Assembly (NCBI GenBank): GCA_963662665.2
Contig: CAXXJS010000043.1
Location: 1 to 44,242 of the forward strand
Length of the DNA stretch: 44,242 nt
Source of the DNA: Candidatus Latescibacterota bacterium
GTDB lineage: Bacteria > Latescibacterota > UBA2968 > GCA-2709665
Direction of reading: 5' to 3'
In this document: in pieces, positions 1 through 41,742 of the stretch
Layout: each line of letters opens with the position of its first letter
Position numbering within the stretch: the stretch's first letter is position 1
The notes under the pieces: model-generated
Told to the model about the DNA's origin: nothing
Database searches by the model: none
What the model saw: only the letters and a program-made list of their open reading frames with translations
Program-made: the position numbers and the translations under genes

Positions 1-307
1 CCTGTTCGCTCGGGCTCTCGCGCCCGACGTCGGCCGCACGATCGTCGACGGAAACCGGTTCCGTGCCGGCGACGACGCGCATTGGGTCGAACAGCTCTAC
101 ATTCCGGCGATCCGCGCCGCGGGCGACCTCCGTACGGCCGGCGCTCTGATCGCGCCTGCCCCGTTATATGTACACAACACGGGGACGGATTTCCCAATTG
201 ACGAATTTCGCTCCGCTTACCGCGCCGCGGAAGCCTGCTCATCTCTTACGATCTCACGCCGGCGGGTCAACCGGAGGGCGTTGTACAATTGGCTCACGGA
301 TGCCTGA
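1..307 (+). CDS. 3' end of a probable alpha/beta-hydrolase (acetylxylan esterase-like) protein, partial
   Basis: Frame 2 is open from the window edge to TGA at 305-307 (LFARALAPDV...GDLRTAGALIAPAPLYVHNTG...LYNWLTDA*). The LIAPxPLxxHN segment resembles hydrolase C-termini. Not in the ORF track. Confidence 0.55.
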   Translation, partial: LFARALAPDVGRTIVDGNRFRAGDDAHWVEQLYIPAIRAAGDLRTAGALIAPAPLYVHNTGTDFPIDEFRSAYRAAEACSSLTISRRRVNRRALYNWLTDA

Positions 308-332
308 CCCCGCTTCTCGCCTGGATCAACCA

Positions 333-1643
333 ATGAAAATCGCCCATATTTCGGATTTTCATCTCCGCCATCATCTTCCCGGCACTTCCACGATATCCCG
401 TCGCCTGAGCCGTTATATGCCGGATCTCATATCACAGGCGGTGGAACGCATTCGCGTGGAATCTCCCGATCTTGTCGCGGTCACCGGCGACCTGGTCGAC
501 CATCCCTTTTACGGGATGCACGACCCGGAACTCATCGCCCTTGGGGAGAAGGATCTCCGTCTTGTCCGTGAATGCTTTGCGCCGCTGACCTGCCCCGTCG
601 CCTTTCTCTACGGCAACCACGACCATCCGGAATCTTTTCACAGAGTCTTCGGCGACCTGCCGTTGGACTTCCGCGCGGCGGGCCATCGCGTGCTGATCTT
701 CCTGGACGACGAAGTGGAAGACCACTTCCCACAGCGCCTGGGAACCCAGCGCGAACGGTTTCTGGCTGCACTGAACGACGACGACCCGCGCCCACAGGTC
801 CACCTCCAGCACTACCTCGTCTCGCCCGAGCGCACGGGCGGCTATCCCCACGCCTACAGGGAGGCCGGGAGCCTCAAGGCGGCCCTCTTGGCCGACAGCC
901 GGGTGCGCCTGGTGCTCAGCGGCCACTACCACAAGGGGGACAGCCTGTTCAGGGAAGGCCACGTCCACTTCGCCAACGCGCCCGCGTTCGGGGAGCCGCC
1001 GCACCCGTTTCGAATCTACACCCGGAGCGGGACCGGCGTCGTACAGAACGAATATCGATTGCGTTCGCCAGAGGCTCGAAAACGAAGCGCCGTCTTCCTG
1101 GACCGAGACGGAACCGTCAGCCCTGCTCCCGCCTACCGCACCGGTCCTGAGCACTTCAGCCTGTTGCCCGGAGCCGGGGAAGCGCTTGCAAAGTTGAAAC
1201 GCGCCGGGCACGCCCTCGTGATTGTCTCGAACCAGACCGCCGTCGGACAGGGATACGTCACCACCGAAACCGTCGGCGCCGTAAACGACCGCATGGCCGC
1301 GCTGTTCGGTGCTTCCGGCGTGGAACTGGACGGGGTCTACTGCCGGTACGGCAGTCCGAACGCCGTGCTGCCGGAACATCGTACAGATCGTCCGGAGACG
1401 AAGCCCAGTCCCGCGATGCTGCATGCCGCGGCCGAAGACCTCAATCTGGACCTTTCCGTGTCTTTCATGATTGGTGACAGAAAAAGCGACGTGGACGCCG
1501 GGCGCAACGCCGGCTGTCGCGCGTCCATCCTGGTGAGGACGGGTTCCGGTCCCACGGCGCTGGCGAAGATGTCTCCCGGGCACGCGGATTTTGTTGCTGA
1601 CGACCTCAGCGCCGCCGCGGACTGGATTCTGGAGCACGGATGA
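333..1643 (+). CDS. Calcineurin-like metallophosphoesterase fused to HAD-IIIA GmhB/HisB-like phosphatase
   Basis: N-half motifs SDFH, TGDLVD, GNHD, GHYH. C-half motifs FLDRDGT, SNQ, KPSP, IGDRKSD. Start moved to ATG 333 (MKIAHISD) because the upstream CDS ends at 307. Confidence 0.85.
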   Translation: MKIAHISDFHLRHHLPGTSTISRRLSRYMPDLISQAVERIRVESPDLVAVTGDLVDHPFYGMHDPELIALGEKDLRLVRECFAPLTCPVAFLYGNHDHPESFHRVFGDLPLDFRAAGHRVLIFLDDEVEDHFPQRLGTQRERFLAALNDDDPRPQVHLQHYLVSPERTGGYPHAYREAGSLKAALLADSRVRLVLSGHYHKGDSLFREGHVHFANAPAFGEPPHPFRIYTRSGTGVVQNEYRLRSPEARKRSAVFLDRDGTVSPAPAYRTGPEHFSLLPGAGEALAKLKRAGHALVIVSNQTAVGQGYVTTETVGAVNDRMAALFGASGVELDGVYCRYGSPNAVLPEHRTDRPETKPSPAMLHAAAEDLNLDLSVSFMIGDRKSDVDAGRNAGCRASILVRTGSGPTALAKMSPGHADFVADDLSAAADWILEHG

Positions 1644-2266
1644 TGGCAAGACCGTCCTTTCGATCCGTTCTGATGATCCTGATTACGGTGGCGCTCGCGG
1701 CCTCGGTATTCGGCGTTGTCCTCAATGGGTATTCGAAGGATCTGGACGTCCTTCTGGGCTCTCAGCCTGCCAACCTCGCAGCCACCGATCTACCCCCTGT
1801 CCTGCTGAGGGTCGCAGACTCTTTGTCGACTGCGGATCTTGCCCGCCTGCTTGCCGAACAACTCGCTCGCCCGGGCAGTGCCAATCCCTCAGGTTGGCTG
1901 AGGCGGACCTGTTACCCGTTCCTGATCACCCTCAAATACGAAAAAGAAAGCCTGCTGGCTTTCTTTTTCAACCGGACGCCCTTCCCTTTTCCTCGACGAA
2001 CCCCCGTGCCGGGTTTCGAAGACGCCGGTCGCGCTTACTTCGGCGTACCGCCGGATCGGCTGACCGCGGGCGAAGCGATCCTGCTGTTCCAAATCGCCCG
2101 CTTTCCCGATTCGCCGTTACCCGTAAGTGACCCGGAAGGTTCATTGGAACTTCGGAACCGCCTCCTGCTGGACCTCCTGAACGACAAGCTGATTACACCG
2201 CGCCGGTATCGCTCCGAATCCAGCCGCCCGCTCATCCTGTCCGGCAGCCATCCGGCCGTGTGGTGA
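1640..2266 (+). CDS. Membrane-anchored transglycosylase (GT51)-like protein, degenerate
   Basis: N-terminal TM helix. KESLLAFFFNRTPF...GFEDAGRAYFG...LTAGEAILL resembles GT51 motifs 4-5. Overlaps the previous stop codon. Confidence 0.65.
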   Translation: MMARPSFRSVLMILITVALAASVFGVVLNGYSKDLDVLLGSQPANLAATDLPPVLLRVADSLSTADLARLLAEQLARPGSANPSGWLRRTCYPFLITLKYEKESLLAFFFNRTPFPFPRRTPVPGFEDAGRAYFGVPPDRLTAGEAILLFQIARFPDSPLPVSDPEGSLELRNRLLLDLLNDKLITPRRYRSESSRPLILSGSHPAVW

Positions 2267-2289
2267 AGCGTCTGCGCGCTTGCGGAATG

Positions 2290-2445
2290 TGGGTGCGACC
2301 AGGGGAACATCGCCGGGACATATAATTCGGGCCTCTATCCGAATTTCCGCCGGCCGGGAGGGTTTGGCAAGCGGAGTACGCGACAGAGGCCCGCGTCCTG
2401 GTTCATCTCACATATTATCCGATTTGATATTGCGAGTCAAGCCCC
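2290..2445 (-). ncRNA. Candidate promoter-driven structured small RNA, copy 1
   Basis: Minus-strand TTGACT(2440-2435)-17 bp-TAATAT(2417-2412). 12-bp stem 2393-2382/2339-2328 with a CCCUCCC loop region. Second hairpin 2313-2295 with a UCCCC loop. Paralog at 6893-7044. Confidence 0.55.
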
Positions 2446-2685
2446 AATCGTTCGGCAGGTGATACCTCGCACTCAGTATTCCGAAAACACAACGACGGCG
2501 CCATTTAAGAAAAAATACCGCAGTCTTGCTGATATTTCGCGTATATTATTGCGAAATTGATGAATTCGCGACTCTTCCGGCCCTGCGCAGCCCCTGGGTT
2601 GCGGACGGATCGCGTCTTGAATTTTTCACCGCGGTCGATCAATGTGGTGGTGTCTTCCATAATGGCAACTGTAAAGGAGTTCGGT

Positions 2686-5600
2686 ATGGCTAACGAAGTC
2701 TTCGACAAGAAAAAGCCTTTGTCGATGCTGGCGCTCATTGCGCTGCTTTTCGGCTTTCCGGTGTCCGGCACGGCTGTAGACGATATGCAGGAGGACTACC
2801 GGAAATGGCACCTGCCCGACGGTGCGACCGGGCGCCTGGGAAGGGGGGCAATCGGGTCCGGAGCCCGTGCGCTGGACGTTTCTCCAGACGGGCAGACGCT
2901 GGCCGTGGCCAGCGGCATCGGCGTGTGGCTGTATGACGGGTCCACGGCCAGCACCCTGGCGCTTTTGCCGAGTTCCGGTCGGGTAAACTCGGTGTCGTTT
3001 TCGCCGGATGGCGGCACGCTGGCAACCGTGTCAGAGGATGGCGCGGTATTACTTTGGAACGTGGCGACGCGATCAGAGGCGGCCACATTTGAAGGTCAAG
3101 CGGAGAAACTCACTTCGGCCGTGTTTTTGCCTGAGGGTGACGAACTGGTCGCCACGTCAGACGACGGCACCGTTTCATTGTGGGACGTGGCTTCGCAATC
3201 CCTGACAGCCACCTTCGTCGGTCATACCGATCCTGTCACTTCCGTCGCGTTTTCGCCGGATGGCGGCACGCTGGCCACCGCGTCGGAGGATGGCGCCGTG
3301 TTGCTGTGGGACGTGAGCGCGCGAACGCAGGCCGGCACGCTCGAAGGGCTCGCCGATGACGTCACCTCGCTATCGTTTTCGCAAGACGGTGGCACGCTGG
3401 CCACCGTGTCGGGGGATAGCACGGTGTTGCTTTGGGACGTCGCCTCGCCGACGGAGGCAGATACCCTTAAGGGTGATACGGGAAGAATTACTCTGGTAGC
3501 ATTTTCGCCGGATGCGGACACGCTGCTCACAGCGTCGGATGACGGCAACGTGTTGCTGTGGAACGTTAACAGGCGATGGGTGGTCGACACCCTCGAAGGG
3601 CATACGGGTCGCGTCACATCGGTGGTGTTTTCGAATGACGGCGGCACGCTGGCCACCGCGTCAAAGGATGGCACGGTAAGGTTCTGGGACGTAGAGACAG
3701 GGTATTTCGTCGCATTTGGCGGTCATAAATCCGCTGTCAATTCGGTCGTGTTTTCGTCGGACAGTGACACGTTGATTTCCGGATCTGCGGGTGGCGCGGT
3801 AATCCTGTGGGACGCAGGTGCAGGAATACAGATAGATACCTTCCTGGGGCATGGTGGAAGCGTCACGTCAATGGTTTTTTCGCCCGACGCGGACACGCTG
3901 GCTACCGCGTCGGCGGATAGCACGGTGCTGCTGTGGGACGTGGCCTCGCGATCGGAGGTTGTCGCTCTTGAAGGCCACGCGGGCGGTGTGACTTCGGTGG
4001 TATTTTCGCCGGAAGGGGACGCGCTGGCATCCGGTTCGGAGGATGGGACGGTGCTGCTGTGGGAGATTGCCACACGATCAGGGGTCGCCACCTTCGAAGG
4101 GCATCGAGAGAGTGTCAACACGGTCGCGTTTTCGCCGGACGGGAGAACGGTGGCCACCGGGTCGAGCGACTACACGATCAAGCTGTGGGACGTTGCATCA
4201 CATTCACAGGTAGCCACCCTGCAAGGGCATTCGGATCGTATCGTATCTGTGGCGTTTTCACAGGACGGCAGCAGGCTGGCCTCAGGTTCACATGACAACA
4301 CCGTCAAGGTGTGGGACGTGGCAGCACGAACCGAGGTCGCTACGCTGACGGGGCATACCGCCAATGTCAATTCCGTCGTGTTTTCGCCTGATTGGGGCAC
4401 GATGGCCTCGGGGTCGGAGGATGGTACGGTGCTGCTGTGGGATCTGTCGGAGTGGCCGGGACTCCGGCCATTCTCGCTGGAGGTTGTCTCGGGAGACGGA
4501 CAGGAGGCTGCGACCGGTGGAATCCTTGCAGATTCCCTTGTCGTTGCAGTGAGAGATCAGAACGGCGAACCCTTGCCCGATGTCCCTGTCGCATTCACGG
4601 TCTCCGCCGGCCAGGGTATGCTCAGCGGCCGGTTCACAGTCCAGCATACACGTACTGGCGCCGACGGCCGAGCGGCCGTCACCCTGACGCTGGGTAACCG
4701 TGCGGGAACGAACATCGTGCTGGTAACGCTCGGCGGTCGAGAGTTGGCTGCCTTTAGCGCGGAAGGAGTGGGAAGCTCCGTGGTCGCGATGGATGGGGAC
4801 TTCCGGAAGTGGCACCTGCCCTGGCGGGCGACGGCGCGCCTTGGCAAAGGCGCCATTTCACGGAGCGACCGCGCGGTGGCTACGTCTCCTGATGGTCGAT
4901 CAGTGGCGGTCGCCAGCGGAATCGGTGTGTGGCTTTATGACGCGAGTGCCGCCCGCGCCACCGCTCTCCTGCCGTCCGACGGTCATGTCCTGACATTGGC
5001 ATTCTCAGGTCGTGGCAACCTGGCCGTGGGGAGGTACGATGGACAGATCGAACTCTGGAACGTCGCATCAGGCGCGCGAGTCGCCACCCTCGCAGGGCAT
5101 GCGGATGGGGTGAATTCTGTTGTGTTCTCGTCCGACGGGACCACGCTGGCCTCCGGGTCTGACGATGGGACGGTCCGGCTATGGGACCTGGACTTGCGGA
5201 CAGAAATCGCCATACTGCAGCGGCAAGGGTTCGGGGTCGCTTCGGTGGCGTTTTCTCCTGACGGCACCCTGCTGGCATCCGGATCGAGCGACAATAGAAT
5301 CAAGCTATGGGACGTGGCCTCGCGAACCGGGGTCGCTACCTTTGAAGGTCATGCGGATGGCATCACTTCCGTGTTGTTTTCTCCGGATGGGGGTACACTG
5401 GCCTCGGGATCGGGCGATCGTTCGGTGAGACTGTGGGACGTGGCCGCGCGAACCGAGGTCGTCACGCTCGAAGGGCATGGCGGTCCGGTCACCTCAGTGT
5501 CGTTTTCGTCTGACGGCGCCACGCTGGCCTCCGGGTCGGCCGACGGCAAGGTCAAGCTATGGGACATCCCCACGCGAGAACTGATCAACACACTGGAAAG

Positions 5601-6792
5601 GCATACGCACAGGGTCAATTCGGTATCGTTCTCACGGAATGCGTCCATTCTTGCGTCCGGGTCGGAGGACGGCACCGTCATCGTCCGGGACCTGGAGACG
5701 GGGAACGCGGCAACGGTTTACGGGCACCGGTCCTTAACGTCAATGGCGCGTTCGCCCGATGGCGCCACACTGGCCTCCGGGTCGCTGGATAACAGCGTGA
5801 GGCTGTGGGACGTGGCCGCACGAACCGAGGTCGCCGTTCTGGAAGGGCACAGGGATTGGGTGCGCTCGGTGTCGTTTTCGCCCGACGGCGCGACACTGGC
5901 GTCCGGGTCGAGCGACCACACCGTCAGGCTTTGGGACGTGGCGACGCGATCCGAGGTTGCGACCCTCGACGCGCGCAGTTGGGTCTATTCGGTGGCGTTC
6001 TCGCGGGATGGGGGCACCCTGGCCGCCGGGTTGCGGCATGGCACGGCGACGGTTTGGAACATCGCGACGCTCGCCGAGGTTGCCATTCTCGAAGGACATG
6101 AACACACGGGCGGGGTCGCCTCAGTGGTGTTTCTCCCGGATGGGAGCACGCTGGCCACAGGATCCAGCGACCGCACCGTGAAGCTGTGGGACGTGGCGGC
6201 GCGAACGGAGGTTGCCACGCTTGAAGGGCACGATGGATGGGTCTATTCGTTGGCATTGTCGGAGGATGGGAGCATTCTGGCTTCCGGGTCTGAGGACGGC
6301 ACGGTCCGGATTTGGGACGTAGCCACCAGGACGGAGACCGCCAGGCTCGAAGGGCATACCGGCTGGGTGTATTCGGTGGCGTTCTCCGAGGATGGGAGTA
6401 CACTGGCCTCCGGGTCTCAGGACGGTACGGTCCGGATATGGGACGTGGCCGCGCGAACAGAAACCGCCAAACTCGAAGGGCATACCGGCTGGGTGTATTC
6501 AGTGGTGTTTCTGGAGGATGGGACCACGCTGGTTTCCGGATCGAGGGATGGCTCTATGCTGATATGGGATCTCTCCGATGACGTTCCGCCGCCTCCGGTT
6601 CCACCGCAAACTCCCAGCGCGGACTTCAACGATGACGGGGCCGTCAACTTCGCTGACTTTGTGCTGTTTGCGCGGCAATTCGGATTGCGGGAAGGCGATG
6701 CCGGATATGACGCAAAGTTTGACCTGAATGAGGATGGCGCCATCGGCTTCGGCGACTTTGTGCTGTTCGCAAACGCCTTCGGGCAGATTTGA
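2686..6792 (+). CDS. Secreted WD40-repeat protein: two WD40 modules, central Ig-like (Big_1-like) domain, C-terminal dockerin/EF-hand-like domain
   Basis: AAGGAG RBS before ATG 2686. Signal-peptide-like N-terminus. Many GH...V.SV.FS.DG..LASGS.D.TV.LWD repeats. SGDGQ...LVVAVRDQNG Ig motif. ADFNDDGAVNFADF...FDLNEDGAIGFGDF tail. Confidence 0.9.
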   Translation: MANEVFDKKKPLSMLALIALLFGFPVSGTAVDDMQEDYRKWHLPDGATGRLGRGAIGSGARALDVSPDGQTLAVASGIGVWLYDGSTASTLALLPSSGRVNSVSFSPDGGTLATVSEDGAVLLWNVATRSEAATFEGQAEKLTSAVFLPEGDELVATSDDGTVSLWDVASQSLTATFVGHTDPVTSVAFSPDGGTLATASEDGAVLLWDVSARTQAGTLEGLADDVTSLSFSQDGGTLATVSGDSTVLLWDVASPTEADTLKGDTGRITLVAFSPDADTLLTASDDGNVLLWNVNRRWVVDTLEGHTGRVTSVVFSNDGGTLATASKDGTVRFWDVETGYFVAFGGHKSAVNSVVFSSDSDTLISGSAGGAVILWDAGAGIQIDTFLGHGGSVTSMVFSPDADTLATASADSTVLLWDVASRSEVVALEGHAGGVTSVVFSPEGDALASGSEDGTVLLWEIATRSGVATFEGHRESVNTVAFSPDGRTVATGSSDYTIKLWDVASHSQVATLQGHSDRIVSVAFSQDGSRLASGSHDNTVKVWDVAARTEVATLTGHTANVNSVVFSPDWGTMASGSEDGTVLLWDLSEWPGLRPFSLEVVSGDGQEAATGGILADSLVVAVRDQNGEPLPDVPVAFTVSAGQGMLSGRFTVQHTRTGADGRAAVTLTLGNRAGTNIVLVTLGGRELAAFSAEGVGSSVVAMDGDFRKWHLPWRATARLGKGAISRSDRAVATSPDGRSVAVASGIGVWLYDASAARATALLPSDGHVLTLAFSGRGNLAVGRYDGQIELWNVASGARVATLAGHADGVNSVVFSSDGTTLASGSDDGTVRLWDLDLRTEIAILQRQGFGVASVAFSPDGTLLASGSSDNRIKLWDVASRTGVATFEGHADGITSVLFSPDGGTLASGSGDRSVRLWDVAARTEVVTLEGHGGPVTSVSFSSDGATLASGSADGKVKLWDIPTRELINTLERHTHRVNSVSFSRNASILASGSEDGTVIVRDLETGNAATVYGHRSLTSMARSPDGATLASGSLDNSVRLWDVAARTEVAVLEGHRDWVRSVSFSPDGATLASGSSDHTVRLWDVATRSEVATLDARSWVYSVAFSRDGGTLAAGLRHGTATVWNIATLAEVAILEGHEHTGGVASVVFLPDGSTLATGSSDRTVKLWDVAARTEVATLEGHDGWVYSLALSEDGSILASGSEDGTVRIWDVATRTETARLEGHTGWVYSVAFSEDGSTLASGSQDGTVRIWDVAARTETAKLEGHTGWVYSVVFLEDGTTLVSGSRDGSMLIWDLSDDVPPPPVPPQTPSADFNDDGAVNFADFVLFARQFGLREGDAGYDAKFDLNEDGAIGFGDFVLFANAFGQI

Positions 6793-6892
6793 ACCGCCGA
6801 TGCAGCGCAGGCCGGTATTGGTCAATCCGGGCATCCTTCCGGGATTTGACGTCGTGGTGAGCGCCGGCAACGCCGGCGTTGAGGAACCCTAT

Positions 6893-7044
6893 GCGCGCGA
6901 CTGCGGGGAGGTCGTGCGGGTCATATGATTCGGGCCTCTATCCGTAACTCCGGCCGCCGGGGGGACGGCAGACAGAGCGCAAGACAGAGGCCCGCGTCCT
7001 GATTCATACAATGTTATCCGATTTCCGGCACAAAGTCAAGACCC
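6893..7044 (-). ncRNA. Candidate promoter-driven structured small RNA, copy 2
   Basis: Minus-strand TTGACT(7039-7034)-17 bp-TAACAT(7016-7011). Same 12-bp stem 6994-6983/6942-6931 with a UCCCCC loop. Second hairpin 6914-6898 with a UCCCC loop. Confidence 0.55.
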
Positions 7045-7111
7045 GGTGATCGAAACCTGCAATTCTTCAGCATCCGGCAGTCCCGCGCGACAACCGCTGC
7101 CGCAGGCGGGA

Positions 7112-7861
7112 CTACGGAATCAACTCGATTCGGACCACGTTCTTGACGTTCGCGCATTTGTCGTCGGTTTCAGGAATGAACAGCCGTATCGGGCCGCCGA
7201 GTCTTTCCGGTAGCGGATGGTCGCCGATGCGGTAGACGAGGACGCCATTTTCGACTGCCGCGGCGAGGGAGACCCGGGCAAAAAACCCTTCGTCGGGCGA
7301 ATGAAATACGGCCTGGCGCGCATCGGCGTGCACTGCCGCGCCCCTCAGAAGATCGGCGACTGATACCGCCGATCCGCGGCGCCCGGGAACGATGTGCCCG
7401 ATGTCCTCGATCTGTCCGGGAACCCGCCGCAGGTCCGCGTACGTGAAGGCCATCGGTCTGTGTAGACATCCCGCAATCGTCAACAACGGCGCGGTCTCGT
7501 CACTGTCCATCCCCGAAGCCGTCTGGTCGATGTAATCGTGTGCGATTTCGACCAGACGCGCGTCGAAGCCGACAGTCGGCGCGACGTGGATTTCCAAATC
7601 GGCATGGCCCTTGTCAAACCTGCCCACGCGCTGTCGGACACGATGCAGAACCCGTTCGTCCTCACGAAACAGGAACGGCAGGACCGCGATCTGCTTCGCT
7701 CCGTGTTTGACACACGCCGCCAGAGCGTCTTCGACAGAGGGACGGCCATCCAGAGCGCCCGCTTCAGCCACAATTCCCCGGTGCACAAGCGCATCCACTA
7801 CCTGTGTCAGGCAGTTGTCATCCGCGCGCGCCGCGACGAGTACCGTGGCGTGGGTCATCAT
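7112..7861 (-). CDS. CbiX/SirB-like chelatase-fold domain fused to a molybdopterin-oxidoreductase-like domain
   Basis: GGAGG RBS before ATG 7861. PSVEDAL...GAKQIAVLPFLF...HVAPTVG (CbiX-like). LPERLGGPIRLFIP...NVKNVVRIEL (sulfite oxidase/YedY-like). Confidence 0.7.
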   Translation of the reverse strand: MMTHATVLVAARADDNCLTQVVDALVHRGIVAEAGALDGRPSVEDALAACVKHGAKQIAVLPFLFREDERVLHRVRQRVGRFDKGHADLEIHVAPTVGFDARLVEIAHDYIDQTASGMDSDETAPLLTIAGCLHRPMAFTYADLRRVPGQIEDIGHIVPGRRGSAVSVADLLRGAAVHADARQAVFHSPDEGFFARVSLAAAVENGVLVYRIGDHPLPERLGGPIRLFIPETDDKCANVKNVVRIELIP

Positions 7862-7960
7862 TTCGCCTCCATCCGGCGACGGAACATTCGTTAGACGTTC
7901 GAGTGGTCTTTGGCGCGGGTCGTTCGAAACCCGTGCTTCATCAGCGGTGGGTTCCTGATT

Positions 7961-8095
7961 ATGCCCAATTTTGTCGATCTTCCGATTCTCATCCAGGTGA
8001 TTCTGCTGATTTTCGCGGTACTGATACTCCTGGTTGGCGCCAGCCTGGTCCGGCGGATGGTGAAAGCCCTTTTCGGCAAGAAAGACCGCGACTGA
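7961..8095 (+). CDS. 44-aa single-pass membrane protein
   Basis: MPNFVDLPILIQVILLIFAVLILLVGASLVRRMVKALFGKKDRD: one strong hydrophobic helix plus a basic tail. Divergent from the CbiX-like gene. Confidence 0.55.
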   Translation: MPNFVDLPILIQVILLIFAVLILLVGASLVRRMVKALFGKKDRD

Positions 8096-8213
8096 CCCGC
8101 CCGTCACGAAGACCTTCCCGAAATCAAGTTTGAATAGCAGACTACGGCGGCAAGTTTCGTTTTACCCAAGACCCCCTTTGGTGAGTTGTCGCAGTCGATT
8201 GAGTCCATCCCGA

Positions 8214-8237
8214 TATACACACACAAGTGTGTGTATA
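8214..8237. promoter_or_regulatory. Perfect 11-bp inverted repeat, operator-like
   Basis: TATACACACAC-AA-GTGTGTGTATA. Confidence 0.4.
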
Positions 8238-8294
8238 AAATTCCAATCCCTCGATTTCGCGCCGGTATTTCCAAGTGTACGCCCCGATCTCCCG

Positions 8295-8576
8295 CTATTC
8301 CTCCGGTCGACTCGAAGTCCCTTTTAACTGGCTTCGCGCATAGGAGAGGGCCATGACTTCAAGGGCGTTGATGAGGTAGACTTCGCGCGCGTGGCCGTCT
8401 AGGGCTTCGGCCATCTGTTTCGCAAGCGCGGGGATCTCGGCCTCCAGGTCGGCTCTCATTGCGTCCCAGCCGGACAGGCGGCCGTGTTTTTCGAGGCAGG
8501 ATTCCCGCGCGGCGCGGTAGATTGCCCTCGCGAGCGTCCGCGGATCTCCGTCGAGCTGGATCTGAGCGTCATCCAT
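8295..8576 (-). CDS. Hypothetical protein (93 aa)
   Basis: Protein-like helical composition with GC-typical codons; fills the intergenic gap. Confidence 0.55.
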   Translation of the reverse strand: MDDAQIQLDGDPRTLARAIYRAARESCLEKHGRLSGWDAMRADLEAEIPALAKQMAEALDGHAREVYLINALEVMALSYARSQLKGTSSRPEE

Positions 8577-8600
8577 TGGGATCTCGTGTTATTGCCGGAA

Positions 8601-8741
8601 GCAGGGGCAGGTTTCAAACCTGCACCGACGATTGGTGTAATGGAACCATCCAGGATTCGGCGGCGAGTTGCGATGTTCTCGGACACAGCAAAATCCCGTT
8701 TCGGTATTATGTACATGAGCAGACAGGAATGTCCGCTCCAC
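8601..8741. repeat. Two REP-like palindromes
   Basis: GCAGGTTT-C-AAACCTGC (8607-8623) in a GCAGGGGCAGG context, and GAGCAGACA-GGAA-TGTCCGCTC (8717-8738). Confidence 0.55.
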
Positions 8742-8839
8742 CCTGTCAAGATGTCGTTCGAGGTATTGCACTATTGAATCTATCATCCGAGACAAAACCC
8801 CTGCACTTGCTTCCACTTCCCGAAGCATCCTGGCGCCGC

Positions 8840-11800
8840 TTACCCACTCGACCCAACCGGCTCGAAGAGGACGGTGTCGCCGACAACGTAGTCCACAATT
8901 TGAACCCAGGCCCCGGTCGCCAAATTCTGAAGCCGGTCGCCGTCACCTTTATTGGGGTCGATGTGAACGGAGGTCCGGACGCGGCCGGGCGGCCAGGACC
9001 CCTCGTTGCTCGCATTGGATATCAACGCCCAGTCGTCGTTCGCGCCGGTCTGGATCCGCGTACCGTTGAGGTTGCCGGACTTGGCCAGGATGTGAAAGCC
9101 GAAGTCGATCCTGCCGTCTTCGGCGGCGACCACCTTTGCACGCCCCAGGAGCGAGGTTACGTCCAGCGTGAGCCGATTGACTCGTACTCCCTCGCGCTCG
9201 GCGGCTTCAACGCGATAGGTGTGCGCCCGGCCGTCCGGGTTGACGGTGATGCGGTCACCCGCGGCGATGCCCTCCAGGCCTTCTACGTCAATCGTGCACG
9301 CGTCTCTGTCGAGGGCGACAATGCGGCCGGTTTGCCGGGCGCCGCCGACGGTGAGCGATGTCTCTGCGTTCTGGAACGCGGAAGCGCCCACGGTAGATAT
9401 TCGCCCGTCAACCACGGCCGCGAGCGCGCCCTGCAACGTTACGCCGTCATCGAAACGCGTGTGTTCGCCGGGATCCGCGTCGGGCGCCCAGTATAGCGCG
9501 ATTTCCCTGCCCCGCGCGGTGGTGAGCCTGACGCCGGTGGCGGTGGGAGACGGGGCGGTAACGGCGACCGCTTTGGCGATGGTGGGTTCGCCGGTTCTGG
9601 GTTCGAAGACGAGGTCGACGCAGGTGGTATCGTTTTGAGGCGTCCGTCGCCAGATGACGGGCTCGTAGAGGTAGTTGGACGTTTCGGGGGTGCCCATCGC
9701 CTGCGCCGCGCGGGTTGTGAACAGGCGGGCGCCGTCGGTGACGTTGAACTGATAGAGGTCCAGGTGTACGTCGGGTTCGGTTTCCGATTGCCACGCCCCG
9801 CTGAAGGCCGCCGGCGCCAGGCCGGTCGACACGTTGTCCATGTAAGCGAGAGCGGTATGGTCCGGGTGCGGCAGGTTACCGGTTTGACCGCGTGCGATAT
9901 GGGCGCCCGCAACCGTACCGGTTTGAGGCTGAAGTCCAGCGTTGTCCGGCCTGAAGACGCCTTCAAGCCCGCGGCAAGTACGCCAGTGTTCCGCGCCTCC
10001 CGTGATCCTGGAGAGGTCGAGGAGGGCGACGCCGTCGCCGTCGGTTTCCACCAGGGCGATGAGGCGGCGGAACGTAACGCCGAGCCTGCGCCAACCGCGT
10101 CCCGCGTGGTGCGCCCATCGGTGCGCCTCGACGTCCAGCGCCTGGACGCCGTCCGTAAAGAGGCTCCGCACCAGGCCCCCGCGGCCGGCGCTGACCGGTT
10201 CCCCCGGAGGCAGGTCGGACCAGACGGTGTTGTGGGTTGCCCAGTGGGATTCCCAGGGAGACATGCTGGCCCAGGACTGGGGATATCCCAGATCGGTCAG
10301 AAACGGGCGCTCGAACGCGAACAACTGGACGTCCAGAAGGTCCCGGTGGCGGTGGTGGAGCGTATCTCCGTAGACGATCCCGGCGGCAGCGCGCTCGGGC
10401 GCCTCGGCTGTGCGGAGAATTGCGATGCCGACGCCGTCGTGGACAGTGGGTCCCAGTGCCAGGTGCCGTCTGCTCCGGACTGCGGAGCGGATCTCTTTTA
10501 CCCGCGGGTGATCGGTGAAGGCTACGGCGCGGTCCAGAAGATCGGGATCCATGGGCGGATGGAAGAGGTCGTTTTCAAGGCGGATGGTGTCCTCTCCCTT
10601 GAAGCCCGCGGAACCGGGGGCGGATCCATCGCCGAACTGGAAATAGGATTTGCCGGCCATGGTGATCTCGTGCAGGGCGCGGGGAACGTGTGCGCCCCGC
10701 CGATCGTCGAAGAGGGATGGGTAGTCAGATTCCGGGTAGGCTTCGGGTTGCAGGGCACGAAGGTTTCGGAGGTGATGCTCCAGGTCGAACAGCCCGTCGC
10801 TGTGAATCGAGTTGTAGCCTCCCGTGGCCTCCTGGGGCGTACCGTCCGGGAAGAAGTCGTTGGTGGTGAAAACCCGCAGCGTGTCCGGCCCTTCATCGTA
10901 AATCCAATCCATCACGTCCCGCGCGTCGGGGCGGTCCAGACAGCGCAGAATACTGAACGCCCCCTGGCTCTCTCTGGGAAGGTTGCTGCTCGCGCCACGG
11001 TCCAGCGTGACCTGGAGCAGACAGGCCAGCATTTCTTCCGTGAGTTGACAGGCATCTTCGGGAGTCTGAACGGAAAGGCCCATCGATTGGGCGCGTTTGA
11101 CGAGTTCCCCGTCTTCACGCATCAGCGGCCAGACCGTATCGTATGCCAGTGCGAGGCTCGCTATCAGATACGGGGTGTCGATGCTGTAACGAATGCTGCC
11201 CTTGGCGCGGAGCGCCTGAACCGGGTCCGACTCGTCCGCCCAGTCGGTCTGACCCCAGTCCCAGGGTTCTTCCACCCCCTTCGAGGGGCCGTATCGGAAC
11301 TGGGGGACGGAGGCCACATAAAGCTCTTCCTCTGCATAGCGAAGCAGTATCAACCCCAGCTGCCGCGCGCGGGATTCATCGAACCCGCCAACGCGCAGGG
11401 CGTTAGTCAGAGCGCCGATTCCCGAATGGAAGCTGCGGCATTGATCCCGGTGATAGGTGGCTGCAAACAGATAGATGTGACCCTCGGCGTCGAAATAGCC
11501 GTACCCGTCGTCCGGACATTCGCCCGAAATATAGTCGTCGTCCGTCAGGTCGTTGCTGGGATAGACCGAAGCGCAATTGGGGCACTCGGACTTGAAATCA
11601 CAGGGAAGGTGGTTGCGAACCCAGGGATAAAAGCCACTGTGTTTGAATATCGCCGTACCGCAGTTCGGACAACCCTGGTGGCAGTTGGCAAAGTGCGCTT
11701 TGGGCATTTCCGCGCCAGGAAGCTGCGACCAGACGGTTTCGTCGGGCTGGGACGACCACCAGGCGGCGGTTTCTTCGTTTACGCGATCGGATACGGGTTC

Positions 11801-12157
11801 GTCCTGCAGCGTCTGCCGGGTCTTTGCCGGTTGGTAGTCCTTCTCCATGGGCCAGCGGCGGGGCCACCACGCGCCGTTGTAGACGTGCGGCCGGCGAAGG
11901 TCGTCCAGCGTTCGGACGCTGATGGCGGCTTCCGCGGTCTTGCCGCCGTGTGTGGCGCGCAGGGTGTATTCTCCGGCCTGGCCGGGAGACCGCAGATAGT
12001 GGTAGACCGCCCCGTCCCGTTCGGACCACCTGGTGGCGATCCGTTCGAAATAATCCGCCGAAAGCGCGACGTCGGCGTCCGGCGCCTGAACCGGGAGGCG
12101 GAAGCTGCGCCCAGGCAGAATGACCCTGGGCCGCCAGGGTATGGCAGGATTGGACAT
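8840..12157 (-). CDS. Heparinase II/III-like polysaccharide lyase-family protein
   Basis: AGGAGA RBS before ATG 12157. E-x-x-GGYN, FGD, HRHRDLL (HxHxD), DLGYP and HNTV motifs. Two CPNC motifs near the N-terminus. Confidence 0.75.
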   Translation of the reverse strand: MSNPAIPWRPRVILPGRSFRLPVQAPDADVALSADYFERIATRWSERDGAVYHYLRSPGQAGEYTLRATHGGKTAEAAISVRTLDDLRRPHVYNGAWWPRRWPMEKDYQPAKTRQTLQDEPVSDRVNEETAAWWSSQPDETVWSQLPGAEMPKAHFANCHQGCPNCGTAIFKHSGFYPWVRNHLPCDFKSECPNCASVYPSNDLTDDDYISGECPDDGYGYFDAEGHIYLFAATYHRDQCRSFHSGIGALTNALRVGGFDESRARQLGLILLRYAEEELYVASVPQFRYGPSKGVEEPWDWGQTDWADESDPVQALRAKGSIRYSIDTPYLIASLALAYDTVWPLMREDGELVKRAQSMGLSVQTPEDACQLTEEMLACLLQVTLDRGASSNLPRESQGAFSILRCLDRPDARDVMDWIYDEGPDTLRVFTTNDFFPDGTPQEATGGYNSIHSDGLFDLEHHLRNLRALQPEAYPESDYPSLFDDRRGAHVPRALHEITMAGKSYFQFGDGSAPGSAGFKGEDTIRLENDLFHPPMDPDLLDRAVAFTDHPRVKEIRSAVRSRRHLALGPTVHDGVGIAILRTAEAPERAAAGIVYGDTLHHRHRDLLDVQLFAFERPFLTDLGYPQSWASMSPWESHWATHNTVWSDLPPGEPVSAGRGGLVRSLFTDGVQALDVEAHRWAHHAGRGWRRLGVTFRRLIALVETDGDGVALLDLSRITGGAEHWRTCRGLEGVFRPDNAGLQPQTGTVAGAHIARGQTGNLPHPDHTALAYMDNVSTGLAPAAFSGAWQSETEPDVHLDLYQFNVTDGARLFTTRAAQAMGTPETSNYLYEPVIWRRTPQNDTTCVDLVFEPRTGEPTIAKAVAVTAPSPTATGVRLTTARGREIALYWAPDADPGEHTRFDDGVTLQGALAAVVDGRISTVGASAFQNAETSLTVGGARQTGRIVALDRDACTIDVEGLEGIAAGDRITVNPDGRAHTYRVEAAEREGVRVNRLTLDVTSLLGRAKVVAAEDGRIDFGFHILAKSGNLNGTRIQTGANDDWALISNASNEGSWPPGRVRTSVHIDPNKGDGDRLQNLATGAWVQIVDYVVGDTVLFEPVGSSG

Positions 12158-12276
12158 GGCAAGGTCTCCTGGAAGTGTGGAAATGCGGTCGGAGAAACGG
12201 CCGGATGCCGCTTTCCGGCCTAACGGCACGTTGAAAAAGCCCATCCAGGCTGCAGAGCGACTTTATCAACGGACTG

Positions 12277-36507: not shown

Positions 36508-36850
36508 GCGGGCATGGTCAATAGCCAGGCGCAGGGAGTCCACATGCGTTCGCCGAGGCGTCGGCAACAATCGGACGGCGGCCACGCTAACCGGGCGCCC
36601 ACCACGACGTGAGACGCCTTTGACTGTTCGAACGAGGGCGGCAAAAAACCGTGCGAGGTGCCCGTGGCAGGTCGGTCTCAACGTTACTGCACATCCGTCG
36701 GCAAGATGTGACCGCATACGTCGATACGGCAGCTTCACACACCCACCTGCGCTCCGGATCAATCAGAAACTCTACCTGCGATTTCTCTGTTGGGATTCCG
36801 CCTCCTCCGCTCCCGCCCCCTTAGATTCGAATCGAGTCTACTGGCTGAAC

Positions 36851-37020
36851 GATGCCCTGATGCGGGTAGAGATTTTCAGGGCTGGCGCACAGCCGGGTAC
36901 AGCTCTGTTAAAAATCGACAAATCTTAATGGATCATACGCCAAACTTCAAGAAAAATTCAACACAAACGTCTCATTTTTCAGAGATAGTTCAACATTTTT
37001 TCGGTATCGTTAATTATAGC
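36851..37020 (+). repeat. Conserved intergenic element, copy 1 (paralog at 41597)
   Basis: GATGCC..GCGGGTAGA.AT.TTCAGGGCTGGCGCACAG and TTCAGAG.TAGTTCA shared with 41597-41740. Confidence 0.6.
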
Positions 37021-38353: not shown

Positions 38354-39847
38354 ATGAAACGGCCATTTACGAATCGGCAATTCGCCTTTTTGTCACTGGT
38401 TGCCGCCTTGATCGTTTTCACCGTGCCGGCTCCGGGCTACGCCCAGGTTCCCGTACCCGCCGTGCAGGAGTCGATCACCGTGTCGACGTCAAGCCCGTTG
38501 ACAGAGGAGATTCTGGATGGGAGCGTGGTGACCGTGACGCTTGCCGGGCGTACATTCGAGCAGTCCATCTTCTCCATCCGTCGGGCGGTGTCGGTCTCGG
38601 GAATTGCGGGCGTGAGCGTGGGCACGTTCGGTATCCGGCGCGTCAACGACACGAAGGTGACGGTTGAACTGACGTTCAACGGCGATATCGACAGCGACGG
38701 TACGTTGACGTTTACGGTGGGCGCGATCGCGAACTACAGCGGCGAACCACTCGTTGCGACATTGCCGGTTGCCGCCGAGGCTAGCGGCGGAACCAATCAG
38801 GTTCCCACGTTCAGCGAAGGCGCCAGCGCAACGCGCAGCTTTGCCGAGAACACCGGCGCGGGACAGAACATAGGCAATCCGGCGACCGCGTCGGATAACG
38901 ACGGCGGTACGCTGACGTACAGCCTTGAGGGTACGGATTCGGCGAGTTTCGCCATCGTCTCAACCAGCGGTCAGTTGCAGACCGGATCGGGCGTCGCCTA
39001 CGACTACGAGGTAAAGAACCGCTATGACGTGACGGTGCGGGCGTCCGACGGACAGGGCGGCAGCGTTACCATTCACGTGACCATTGACCTGACGGATGTG
39101 AGCGAACCTCCGGTAACGTCGGCGCCGCAACTGTATTGGAATCACGTCAATTACAAAATCCAAAGCGCCAACCTGGATGGATCAAACGTAAAAGACGTGT
39201 TGGTCACCGGCCCTAGCGGACAGAGCGCCTCGTGGGGGCTGGCGCTGGACGTGGGGAACGGCAAGCTGTACTGGACGGACTGGGGCGCCGACAAGATTCA
39301 ACGCGCGAATCTGGACGGTTCGAACGTTGAAGACCTGGTCGCCAGCGGTCTGGGCCGCCCAAGCGGGCTGGCGCTGGACGTGGGGAACGGCAAGATGTAC
39401 TGGATGGATCGGGAGACGTCCAGGATTCAACGCGCGGACCTGAGCGGCTCGAACGTGGAAGACCTGGTCACCAGCGGTATAAACGAGCCGGTCGCGCTGG
39501 CGCTGGACGTGGGGAACGGCAAGATGTACTGGACGGACTGGACCGCCGACAAGATCCAGCGCGCGGGCCTGGACGGCTCGAACGTTGAGGACCTGGTTAC
39601 CAGCGCCGACGGACTGGACAGGCCATTCTGGCTGGTTCTGGCGGTCCCGGCGACTGCCACACCTCCAGCGCCGCAGGGACAGAAGACGGCCGATTTCAAC
39701 GGCGACGGCATCGTAAATTTCGCCGATTTCTTCGATTTCGTGGACGCCTTCGGCACCACTGACGCCCAATATGACCTGGACGACAACGGCATCGTAAATT
39801 TCGCCGATTTCTTTGAGTTCGTGGATGCATTCGGGACGTCGGGATAG
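38354..39847 (+). CDS. Secreted protein: cadherin-like domain, YWTD repeats, dockerin/EF-hand-like tail
   Basis: Signal peptide. NQVPTF...FAEN...ASDND...YDYE...VRASDG (cadherin). YWTD repeats. ADFNGDGIVNFADF...YDLDDNGIVNFADF. Confidence 0.88.
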   Translation: MKRPFTNRQFAFLSLVAALIVFTVPAPGYAQVPVPAVQESITVSTSSPLTEEILDGSVVTVTLAGRTFEQSIFSIRRAVSVSGIAGVSVGTFGIRRVNDTKVTVELTFNGDIDSDGTLTFTVGAIANYSGEPLVATLPVAAEASGGTNQVPTFSEGASATRSFAENTGAGQNIGNPATASDNDGGTLTYSLEGTDSASFAIVSTSGQLQTGSGVAYDYEVKNRYDVTVRASDGQGGSVTIHVTIDLTDVSEPPVTSAPQLYWNHVNYKIQSANLDGSNVKDVLVTGPSGQSASWGLALDVGNGKLYWTDWGADKIQRANLDGSNVEDLVASGLGRPSGLALDVGNGKMYWMDRETSRIQRADLSGSNVEDLVTSGINEPVALALDVGNGKMYWTDWTADKIQRAGLDGSNVEDLVTSADGLDRPFWLVLAVPATATPPAPQGQKTADFNGDGIVNFADFFDFVDAFGTTDAQYDLDDNGIVNFADFFEFVDAFGTSG

Positions 39848-40167: not shown

Positions 40168-41496
40168 ATGTCCCCCCGGAATCTCTGTTCTCCGATCCGT
40201 TATTCTCACCTTTCTCGTTGTCACATTATTGTCTTCTGGCGCCTTTGCCTCTACCTTGGAATTCGAACCGGCGCATGCCTGCCAGGCGCCGGACCATGAA
40301 CAGTTAGAGCACGAATTGGCCGCCGGTCCGGCATCCAAGTGGCCCGCGTCGTCGGACTCGAGCCAGACGCGTTCTGTGCGGTTGATCTACTTCCTGCCCA
40401 ACGACCGCACGTTCAACCCGGACATGGTCGATTCGATGAAGGCCAGGATTCTCAGGATCCGGACCTTCTTCCGCGACCAGATACAGTCGAACGGCAAAGG
40501 CAGCAAGACCTTCGAGAATGAGACCGACGCCCGGGGCGCCCCGGTTGTACACCGTGTAGACGCGTCGTACTTTGATGACAGCTATCTCCGCTCGTACCGG
40601 ATCGTGGGCGTGGGAAACGTATTCAGGGACCTGAGACCGACGTTTGTTACCACCAGGAACATATTCTTCATTGTCGTTGACCACAGCACCTACGACAACC
40701 TGGGTTGGGGAAACGTGGCAGGGTTCGGCGGCCGGTGGGCGGACAACCGCGGTTACGCGTTGCTGCCCGCCAGTTTCATCGTTGAGACGGCCGCTCATGA
40801 ACTCGGTCATGCATTCGGCTTGCAGCACGATTTCAACGATGGCGCCAATATCATGTCGTATGGCCCGAGATGGAACAGGCTGGCGGCGTGCAGCGCCGGC
40901 CTGCTGTCGGTTCATCCCTATTTTCAATCCTACAATTCCGATCAAGGGATTTCAGCATGGATACGACCTGGGGGAATTCAACTCGCCCGGCGTCGAGTTG
41001 ATCTCACCGCTGAGATATCCAGCCGGCGCAAAGAGCTTCTCGGTTCAGTCCAGAGGTCATCTGGCGTTGAACGTCCGTATAAGGGTTTAGAAATCAGCTT
41101 ATCCAGGGCTGCACACACCAGGGTTTCGTCCATCAAAACAGATTCGGTGATGGAAGACCTCGACGTCAACGCGTATGCCCTGCCCACAGGGTTCGCAAGA
41201 TACGTGACTCACTGGTTCGACGGAGTTTCTATGGGCCTTTTTCGGACGCAGCCGCACAGCCTGTGTAAAATGTCGAGCCCGTGACCTTCACTGCCATCGG
41301 CACAGCTCACGCCGACTTCGACGGCGACGGGACGGTCGGTTTCGGCGACTTTGTGCTGTTCGCCTCCGAGTTCGGTCGAAGTCAAGGCGACTCGGATTTT
41401 GACGCTCGATTCGATCTGGACTGCAACGGCGCGATCGGGTTCAGCGACATTCTGATCTTTGCCCGCGCGTTGGGAGGCAACACGTCGTCCGGTTGA
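40168..41496 (+). pseudogene. Secreted zinc metalloprotease (metzincin-like) with dockerin-like tail, frameshifted
   Basis: HELGHAFGLQHD plus Met-turn NIMSY. Apparent +1 shifts in C6 (40172-40177) and T4 (40921-40924). Orphan VTFTAIG...ADFDGDGTVGFGDF tail at 41281-41496. Confidence 0.7.
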
Positions 41497-41596
41497 CGAT
41501 CTGCCGGGTCTCGTATTTTGCGCTTTTTCAAAAGGTTGTTGACGCTGGCCCTGCTATTCCCGCCCGGCAATTCAACTCAAGTCGACTGCCTGAAAG

Positions 41597-41742
41597 ATGC
41601 CTTGGAGCGGGTAGAAATCTTCAGGGCTGGCGCACAGTCGCGTTCGAATTTGGAACAAACGAAAGAAATTCATGAAAAAATCATCGCCAAGGCGTTCGAA
41701 TTCAGAGTTAGTTCAGTGTTTTTTTGTTATCTTCACAGTACA
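41597..41742 (+). repeat. Conserved intergenic element, copy 2
   Basis: Matches 36851-37020. Confidence 0.6.

Follow-up and report, generated by a model that had tools for sequence, protein, structure and literature searches.

The 44,242-nt stretch of Candidatus Latescibacterota DNA analysed here (contig CAXXJS010000043.1 of assembly GCA_963662665.2, hereafter the window) carries two direct copies of an element of about 150 bp, copy A at 2290-2445 and copy B at 6893-7044, on either side of a long gene for a WD40 protein. What are these elements, and do they have anything to do with the gene that they bracket? An earlier note made from the letters of this DNA had read them as promoter-driven hairpin RNAs with C-rich loops, members of an undescribed multicopy family of small RNAs (sRNAs) that was possibly co-duplicated with the WD40 gene or marked its insertion. 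Our results suggest that each copy is very probably an independently transcribed sRNA gene, predicted to lie on the minus strand. The predicted RNA belongs to a previously undescribed sRNA family of one Latescibacterota order, and the proposed tie to the WD40 gene did not hold up in related genomes.

The repeat itself was readily recovered. Aligned on the minus strand, the two copies show 81% mean column identity, and a repeat search returned them in direct orientation as the two-copy repeat families D12 and D14, with a spacing of 4601-4603 nt. Copies A and B were the only two matches when the whole assembly was searched (4.86 Mb in 66 contigs, 92% complete); the six other candidates consisted of 17-20-nt matches with E values of at least 0.118. 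Each copy presents the same layout on the minus strand: a GGG-nn-TTGACT block containing the -35 hexamer, a 17-nt spacer, a -10 hexamer, a short tail ending in CAGGACG and a hairpin of ~66 nt. The promoter of copy A runs from 2440 to 2412, with the -35 hexamer TTGACT at 2435..2440, the -10 hexamer TAATAT at 2412..2417 and a predicted start near 2405. It is followed by a single-stranded 5' tail (2394..2405) and by the long hairpin (2328..2393), which is composed of a 12-bp lower stem, an internal loop and an upper stem of 10-11 bp, and which is closed by a 10-nt apical loop containing CCCUCCC (2356..2365). In copy B, the promoter runs from 7039 to 7011 (-35 hexamer TTGACT at 7034..7039, -10 hexamer TAACAT at 7011..7016, predicted start near 7004) and the long hairpin occupies 6931..6994. 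Its lower stem is the same as in copy A, its upper stem is of the type found in copies on the side of the molybdopterin-oxidoreductase gene (MoOx side), and its 8-nt apical loop (6959..6966) holds a run of six C and no U. The C-rich apex that the earlier note had described is therefore present in both copies in two different forms.

The lower stem is identical in copy A (2328-2339/2382-2393) and copy B (6931-6942/6983-6994) and includes one G-U pair that forms on the minus strand, exactly as had been claimed. The upper stem had been described as diverged in sequence yet still pairing. The same 10-11-bp helix is indeed formed in both copies, but each has one mismatch, at differing positions, and most differences between A and B affect one side of a pair or produce a wobble and are not clean compensatory changes. 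Both predicted folds were better than all 200 dinucleotide shuffles, with -51.2 kcal/mol for copy A (z -3.38) and -56.7 kcal/mol for copy B (z -3.59). A second hairpin with a C-rich loop, which had been regarded as common to the two copies, can be predicted in each of them (2295..2313, a weak one, in copy A and 6894..6918 in copy B, both on the minus strand), but the folds downstream of the long hairpin differ in shape and sequence across the 23 copies of the genus introduced below. This second hairpin is not shared and is not part of the conserved element.

A consensus scan called both of the minus-strand sigma-70-like promoters, TTGACT-17-TAATAT and TTGACT-17-TAACAT, as two of only four sites in 7 kb, where shuffled sequences gave 1.6 +/- 1.4 sites. 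A whole-genome search with the promoter and the invariant motif of its spacer (AATCGG) returned the two copies and one unrelated site only. Such a promoter is credible for this organism because the same architecture precedes 19 of its 44 tRNA genes: TTGACA-17-TAnnnT was found within 90 nt upstream of these genes, against a background of 1051 sites in 9.72 million positions, or ~0.65% expected per stretch of that length. The stable-RNA promoter consensus of the window's organism is in itself very clear, TTGACA-17-TA(n)(n)TT (e.g., C61:247870), and it would be useful for annotating other non-coding genes in these metagenome-assembled genomes.

We then looked at the conservation of the element. 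BLAST detected it in all 14 other genomes of the window's genus (g1), and it was not found by BLAST in the seven other genomes of the family or in the 19 searched genomes of the sister family. Together with the window's genome (G000), the genus provided 23 copies from 15 genomes, each genome having one or two copies at a single locus. A first covariance model (R1) recovered the same 23 copies at 77-102 bits and otherwise only weak echoes on the reverse strand. An exact-pattern scan of public genome contigs yielded 15 stretches with true matches, all from assemblies of genus g1; eight other pattern matches in genome contigs scored 9-25 bits and were rejected as chance matches. In public metagenome contigs, one of the seven pattern matches was a true member, identical to a G006 copy over the aligned RNA stretch of 86 nt.

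Across the 23 genus copies, conservation reached 0.87 in the -35 block, 1.00 in the 3' half of the spacer, 0.94 in the 5' tail (the mean majority fraction, 94%) and 0.82-0.98 in the stems, compared to a background of 0.54 upstream of the -35 block and 0.57 downstream of the hairpin. This profile is that of a gene with a promoter. The promoter motif is kept in 23 of 23 copies, with TTGAC as the -35 core in 21 of them and TTGCC in the other two, and AATCGG in the 3' half of the spacer is invariant and followed by A in most copies. The apical loop reads CCCUCCC in 17 copies and is an all-C variant in the remaining six, copy B of the window among them.

The family was then enlarged by three rounds of covariance-model searches (R1, R2 and R3). 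Applied to a sample of the phylum, R1 returned two weaker matches from the sister family, at 54 and 35 bits. The stems of these two members differ in sequence yet pair, their loop reads CCCUCCC, and the hairpin is followed at once by 7-9 U. With the sister-family members added, R2 detected five more members in three further genera, and R3 found the family in 38 of the 40 genomes around G022. In g6, the best sampled of the other genera, all 21 genomes had at least two matches, and mostly two; the two high-scoring ones sit at unlinked loci. The family does not deserve the term multicopy that it had been given, since genomes of the window's genus have one or two copies and those of g6 mostly two matches. 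In a 151-genome sample of the phylum searched at E <= 1e-5, matches were obtained in 16 of 18 genomes of family f1, in addition to the window's genome, and in 23 of 30 genomes of family f2. None of the 102 genomes from twelve other Latescibacterota families had a match (E <= 1e-5, with stricter filters under which weak members may be missed). In the other genera of the window's family, the intergenic DNA beside homologues of the transglycosylase-like gene that adjoins copy A gave R1 matches of 13 bits at most, and the members later found in those genera sit at other loci. By these searches, the predicted RNA family is present in two families, f1 and f2, of one Latescibacterota order.

The distant members also inform the structure. 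In a MAFFT alignment of 26 sequences (the genus copies and the first two distant members), 11 pairs changed on both sides compared to 3.2 +/- 1.3 after shuffling, a value reached by none of 500 shuffles. In a model-fitted alignment of 26 sequences, which leans towards structure, both sides changed in 20 of 25 pairs (9.1 +/- 1.8 shuffled) and in 56 cells (14.0 +/- 3.1 shuffled), and none of 500 shuffles reached the observed values for any of five measures. In this alignment, 90.3% of the cells were paired, compared to 30-45% when the partners were slid, and slid partners gave at most 12 pairs. The L026 row was dropped since it holds the same two G003 copies as L015. Five sequences were left out of the final model-fitted alignment (G002_a, G004, both G006 copies and L105) because reverse-strand echoes from some sources scored 32-34 bits, which overlaps the weakest true members. 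Within the genus, 91% of the cells pair, again compared to 30-45% with slid partners. Once distant members are included, covariation provides strong support for the predicted stem.

Two further features point to an RNA read from one strand. Within the genus, the stems contain 55 G-U and only 9 A-C combinations, an excess that favours the minus strand, and the wider sets present the same asymmetry (65 vs 12 and 30 vs 4). Outside the genus, at least 7 of the 9 nt after the hairpin were U in all 15 copies examined, and since this U-run directly follows the hairpin, the hairpin would also be an intrinsic terminator. In the same 15 copies the CCCUCCC loop is kept and the stems are rewritten: the 5' tail and the stem sequences, including the stem base, change freely and the loop motif alone is fixed. 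In the window's genus, a clear U-run is kept only by G009, G012 and G001 and is otherwise largely lost.

The promoters outside the genus are of two kinds. In one copy group of the sister family, the modelled RNA is preceded at ~20-45 nt by GGAAC[C/T], 14-16 nt and CGT[T/A], a motif resembling promoters of extracytoplasmic function (ECF) sigma factors. It was found in nine of nine copies of that group examined, by eye or, for four of four copies, by regular expression, and its background in the window's genome was 151 sites in 9.72 million positions. Among the promoters set out in PMC10012870, GGAACT-N16-CGTT is a mapped sigma-E/H promoter form of Corynebacterium glutamicum. In the other sister-family group, TTGAC[A/G/C]-17-TAnnnT abuts the RNA, and G022 has one copy of each promoter kind (L129 and L123). 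The window copies are of the sigma-70-like type, with no ECF-like motif within 200 nt of either. The family has two paralogue lineages, which in the sister family have ECF-sigma-like and sigma-70-like promoters respectively, and the two promoter types suggest that one copy is stress-induced and the other housekeeping.

Besides the RNA's own promoters, every copy examined outside the genus has a TTGACA-17-TAnnnT promoter of the next gene no more than ~5 nt past the U-run, the f2 loci L113, L114 and L119-L121 included. In f2, this next gene belongs to a coxM/S/L-like molybdenum hydroxylase operon. A molybdenum enzyme gene adjoins the RNA in the window's genus too, which may be a coincidence or a hint at a regulon.

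How would such an RNA act? Overall, we lean, with somewhat better than even confidence, towards a stand-alone sRNA that acts in trans, is ~80-115 nt long and has a loop resembling an anti-Shine-Dalgarno sequence. A sigma-70-type promoter (TTGACT, 17 nt, TAnnAT) would, in the window's genus, start the RNA ~10 nt upstream of the ~66-nt, 25-bp hairpin, resulting in a predicted length of ~80-85 nt; where the promoter sits further upstream, the RNA would be ~115 nt long. Outside the genus, the hairpin, which is followed directly by the U-run, would double as the terminator. The exposed CCCUCCC loop could then pair in trans with ribosome-binding sites of the GGAGG type, or with other G-rich stretches of mRNAs, and block the initiation of translation, as C-rich-loop sRNAs do elsewhere. 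One paralogue would be wired to stress by an ECF-like sigma factor and the other would be housekeeping; in the window's genus, both would be under sigma-70-like promoters at one locus.

The choice of the loop as the active part rests on the ribosome of the organism itself. The 3' end of the 16S rRNA of the window's genome reads ...GGAUCACCUCCUUUCU, and CCCUCCC has the CCUCC core in common with this 3' end, ...CACCUCCUUUCU. Because CCUCC is the core of the organism's own 16S tail, the loop displays an anti-Shine-Dalgarno core, and because CCCUCCC is fixed order-wide and matches that core, pairing between loop and mRNA is the most likely mode of action. Taking a genuine sRNA as given, we nevertheless put the chances of the anti-Shine-Dalgarno mechanism at about even.

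Several results weigh against this reading. The structural case rests on the distant members because covariation is not significant in the genus alone, where two pairs with changes on both sides are reached by 155 of 500 shuffles, and these distant members were found by a structure-aware model, which introduces a bias towards fitting sequences. The 3' ends of the window copies are uncertain because there is no U-run (4 U in the 9 nt after the hairpin in copy A and 3 in copy B) and a terminator scan calls neither copy. The all-C loop of six of the 23 genus copies, including copy B, cannot pair perfectly with GGAGG. Using RNAduplex, without taking conservation into account, we compared loop A, loop B and the 5' tail with 10,123 crude candidate start regions, and the minima and the 0.1-percentiles fell within the range of five to six shuffled seeds. 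Searches of this 92%-complete genome detected no homologue of Hfq or CsrA. Finally, loop pairing leaves unexplained why the sequences of the 12-bp lower stem and of the 5' tail do not vary among the genus copies, for which a protein partner of the RNA may be responsible.

This last point leads to the alternative that survives best, namely that the sRNA binds or sequesters a protein through its C-rich loop or through the invariant stem base and 5' tail. It would account for an invariance that goes beyond what the scaffold of a seed needs, for target scans that show nothing above shuffled seeds and for a copy B loop that is a poor fit to Shine-Dalgarno sequences. We consider it unlikely all the same. 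Outside the genus, the stem base and the tail are free to vary and only the loop motif is constrained; that motif includes the CCUCC core of 16S rRNA, which offers a ready RNA partner; and no candidate partner protein is linked to the RNA, whose neighbours differ by lineage.

The neighbours bear more directly on a second alternative, that the element acts only in cis, as a long intrinsic or bidirectional terminator or as a structure in the 3' untranslated region (UTR) of the upstream gene. In every lineage the hairpin does lie shortly downstream of a gene on the same strand. In the window this is the CbiX/molybdopterin-oxidoreductase gene (7112..8107, minus strand, Pfam Oxidored_molyb and CbiX), just upstream of copy B; in f2 it is a methyltransferase gene, 20-70 nt away. 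The U-run after the hairpin outside the genus is also what a terminator would show, and in four genomes of the genus the element lies between two convergent genes. A terminator, however, has no need of a 7-nt loop motif that is constant throughout an order, of a 25-bp stem or of a conserved promoter that follows the stop codon of the upstream gene and precedes the hairpin. No gene precedes copy A on its own strand, the WD40 gene being divergent from it, and an ordinary terminator scan misses the window copies. Nor do the lineages have related genes upstream. The RNA gene of f2 is flanked by an MTS methyltransferase gene and a Mo-hydroxylase (coxMSL-like) operon, and in other lineages it is found between a sulfatase gene and a transporter gene or beside purL. 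Flanking genes that differ by lineage fit an autonomous gene, and we judge a purely cis-acting element to be very unlikely.

The arrangement of the locus in the genus decides the question of the WD40 gene. In the window, copy A has a transglycosylase-like gene (1640..2266, plus strand, Pfam Transgly), with which it is convergent, on one side and the WD40 gene on the other; copy B is flanked by the WD40 gene and the CbiX/molybdopterin-oxidoreductase gene. The WD40 gene (2686..6792, plus strand) encodes 1368 aa with a hydrophobic N-terminus, 24 stretches matching Pfam WD40 and a C-terminal dockerin (Dockerin_1, 25.7 bits vs a cut-off of 22.9), and its ATG at 2686 is preceded by AAGGAG. Full-length WD40 orthologues with 65-73% identity are found at the locus in 10 of the 15 genus genomes, that of the window included, and are absent from the locus in the other five. 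The transglycosylase-like gene adjoins the RNA gene in 13 of the 15 genomes and has no match in the stretches from G007 and G013. Two RNA genes flank a full-length WD40 orthologue in G000, G002, G006, G007, G008, G011 and G013, and the orthologue is accompanied by the transglycosylase-side RNA gene only in G001, G009 and G012. Without a WD40 gene, G003 has two RNA genes 300 bp apart, and G004, G005, G010 and G014 have a single one between the transglycosylase and oxidoreductase genes. In a tree of the copies, the MoOx-side copies of G000, G002, G003, G006 and G008 form a clade with a support of 100/98, which indicates that the MoOx-side paralogue is old and common to several species. On this comparison of loci, the WD40 gene is a variable occupant beside or between the predicted RNA genes, and RNA duplication and WD40 presence are separable. 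Because of this, and because the family is far older and wider than the locus, the co-duplication with the WD40 gene, or the marking of its insertion, that the earlier note had raised is not supported.

The same comparison bears on the possibility that selection acts on the DNA, with the copies being a recombination site, the ends of a mobile element or a repeat of the REP or MITE kind that brackets a WD40 cassette. Two direct copies do enclose a gene that some relatives have and others lack, and the 165 bp between the two copies of G003 match nothing in the WD40-bearing genomes. This reading is nonetheless highly improbable and largely refuted already. There are just two copies in the genome, with one or two per genome at a fixed locus in the genus; searches of plasmid and phage collections returned no match to the RNA element; no recombinase family was detected among the eight open reading frames (ORFs) scanned at 168-12244 of the window; the two copies can be found together without the cassette, and the cassette can be found with a single copy. 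The MoOx-side paralogue is an old clade of five species, and the asymmetry between G-U and A-C together with the U-runs points to selection on one strand at the level of RNA.

Other observations on this locus deserve mention. It looks mosaic. For RNA copy A and the N-terminal 130 residues of the WD40 protein, the nearest matches are in G007 and G013 (75-76% identity); for RNA copy B and the C-terminal 110 residues, they are in G008 and G002 (87% identity). This pattern of similarity (2686-6792 vs L030-L041) suggests recombination between species inside the WD40 gene. In G011, the oxidoreductase-side RNA copy is separated from the oxidoreductase gene by an extra WD40-like piece (L032 13399-14226), which indicates that WD40 sequence was acquired at this locus on more than one occasion. 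The WD40 gene ends in a dockerin-type repeat (6622-6770) that is found again at the ends of two or more other genes of the window, at 39692-39837 and 41314-41378 (D6 and D7; Dockerin_1), and that may be an anchoring or secretion module shared by several large repeat proteins. The window also contains a second two-copy direct repeat, at 36825-36898 and 41570-41643 (74 nt, 82% identity), which is non-coding and follows two plus-strand genes. It has only two copies in the genome and a 7-bp GC-rich inverted repeat inside, and it may be another small structured element.

The weakest alternative, a leaderless micro-protein of ~23 residues translated from an ATG or GTG in the 5' tail, has in its favour that the start codons (ATG, GTG or TTG) of all 23 genus copies align and that a 23-codon frame, ending at a TAG inside the 3' arm, is open in 14 of them, but it is extremely improbable: the frame has a stop at codon 3 in the single-copy genome G004, loses its register in the copy-B type through the deletion of 2 nt from the loop and is altered in others, 15 consecutive nt are invariant with no synonymous change and the codons that do vary alter the residue, a Shine-Dalgarno sequence is lacking, the spacing between the -10 hexamer and the start is variable, 10 of the 23 starts are GTG or TTG, and the tail is not conserved outside the genus. 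Since the frame is broken and the invariant nucleotides show no synonymous change, we consider the element to be non-coding, in agreement with the earlier view that no credible ORF is present.

We also searched for known RNAs. The whole window gave no match to Rfam 15 at the gathering thresholds, and a permissive search of 2200-2560 gave two matches only, with E values of 7.5-8, far below threshold. One of these was to Yfr1 (RF01116), with 12.3 bits compared to a gathering score of 38 and an E value of 7.5, which is at the level of chance, and membership in that family was rejected. The RNA of the signal recognition particle (SRP) was considered as well, because the models RF00169 and RF01854 found nothing in the window's assembly. 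This identity was rejected: in complete relatives, a large SRP RNA of the normal kind is encoded at another place (174-177 bits), and it is missing from the window's assembly because that assembly is incomplete. A 6S RNA (RF00013) was not found in the window's assembly either, which says nothing in either direction about the RNA described here. The lack of an Rfam match, the presence of the element in all 15 genomes of the genus and in two families, the covariation, the strand asymmetry and the U-runs in 15 of 15 copies outside the genus together bear out the proposal of an undescribed candidate sRNA family with its own promoter and a C-rich loop. A literature search found no regulatory RNA described for Latescibacterota, and a full-text search for the phylum name with 'sRNA' yielded nothing related.

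For a phylum without a cultured model, this family constitutes a well-defined candidate for riboregulation: it is order-wide and covarying, it has a predicted promoter and terminator, and its two paralogues appear to be wired to different sigma factors. The fixed loop points to a mechanism that can be tested. A covariance model would allow annotators to mark the gene in metagenome-assembled genomes and to seek it in metatranscriptomes. The results also correct an attractive but unsupported idea, that such repeats mark the insertion of eukaryote-like genes. A much bolder picture can be drawn, in which the RNA mimics the anti-Shine-Dalgarno tail and serves as a general translational brake in a phylum without detectable Hfq or CsrA, with ECF-sigma stress and housekeeping paralogues, in which the duplicated gene pair would, in the window's genus, be the fixed boundary of a hot spot for the gain and loss of a secreted, eukaryote-like WD40-dockerin protein, and in which the mosaic locus would reflect interspecies exchange guided by the RNA genes. 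We regard this picture as a whole as quite unlikely.

Several known sRNAs present C-rich loops or stress promoters and can be compared with the Latescibacterota RNA. The RNAIII of Staphylococcus aureus has hairpins with UCCC loops that are proposed or shown to pair with Shine-Dalgarno regions, and it has 514 nt and several domains and also codes for a peptide. The Latescibacterota RNA has the C-rich apical loop in common with it but is a single hairpin of less than 120 nt. In enterobacteria, MicA, RybB and MicL are sRNAs with ECF-sigma promoters that repress translation, using a single-stranded seed at the 5' end and depending on Hfq. In the RNA described here, by contrast, it is the apical loop that is conserved, and the copies of the window have sigma-70-like rather than ECF-like promoters. 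The likeness lies in the one paralogue group with GGAAC-N15/16-CGTT, which resembles the mapped ECF promoters that are set out in PMC10012870.

The closest parallels are found among sRNAs with C-rich pairing regions. For RoxS/RsaE and FsrA of Firmicutes, PMC8216469, as far as its account of these RNAs goes, describes exposed C-rich regions that pair with G-rich ribosome-binding sites with no known requirement for Hfq. The Latescibacterota RNA likewise exposes a C-rich region, and no Hfq was found in the window's genome either. It has no sequence or model match to these RNAs, which in the same account have several C-rich regions, a body of multiple hairpins and a separate terminator, in contrast to the single C-rich loop carried here on the predicted terminator hairpin. 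The CcsR or cuckoo RNAs of Alphaproteobacteria (Rfam ar14) act on ribosome-binding sites through C-rich loops, according to what PMC8034643 reports on them. As in the Latescibacterota RNA, their hairpin loops carry a C/U-rich anti-Shine-Dalgarno motif; there are several homologous copies per locus, with loci that have been duplicated and rearranged, and at least some are under the control of stress sigma factors (as described in PMC8034643). In that description, each CcsR has two hairpins, each with a 9-nt CCUCCUCCC loop, is found beside a DUF1127 gene (the CIN1 context) and is in many cases processed from a UTR. The Latescibacterota RNA has instead one long conserved hairpin with a 7-nt CCCUCCC, its own predicted promoter and no DUF1127 neighbour, belongs to an unrelated phylum and matches no Rfam model. 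Membership in the cuckoo family (ar14) was rejected, given a second hairpin that is not conserved and neighbours that encode transglycosylase-like, WD40 and Oxidored_molyb/CbiX proteins or, in f2, an MTS methyltransferase and a Mo-hydroxylase operon. Yfr1 of cyanobacteria, the only structured sRNA family touched in the permissive Rfam search, resembles it as a short sRNA with an exposed and conserved C/U-rich motif. Judged by sequence and models, the predicted RNA is not in the cuckoo family, in RsaE/RoxS or in any other curated family, and it is probably a new member of the type of sRNAs with C-rich anti-Shine-Dalgarno loops rather than a new kind of system.

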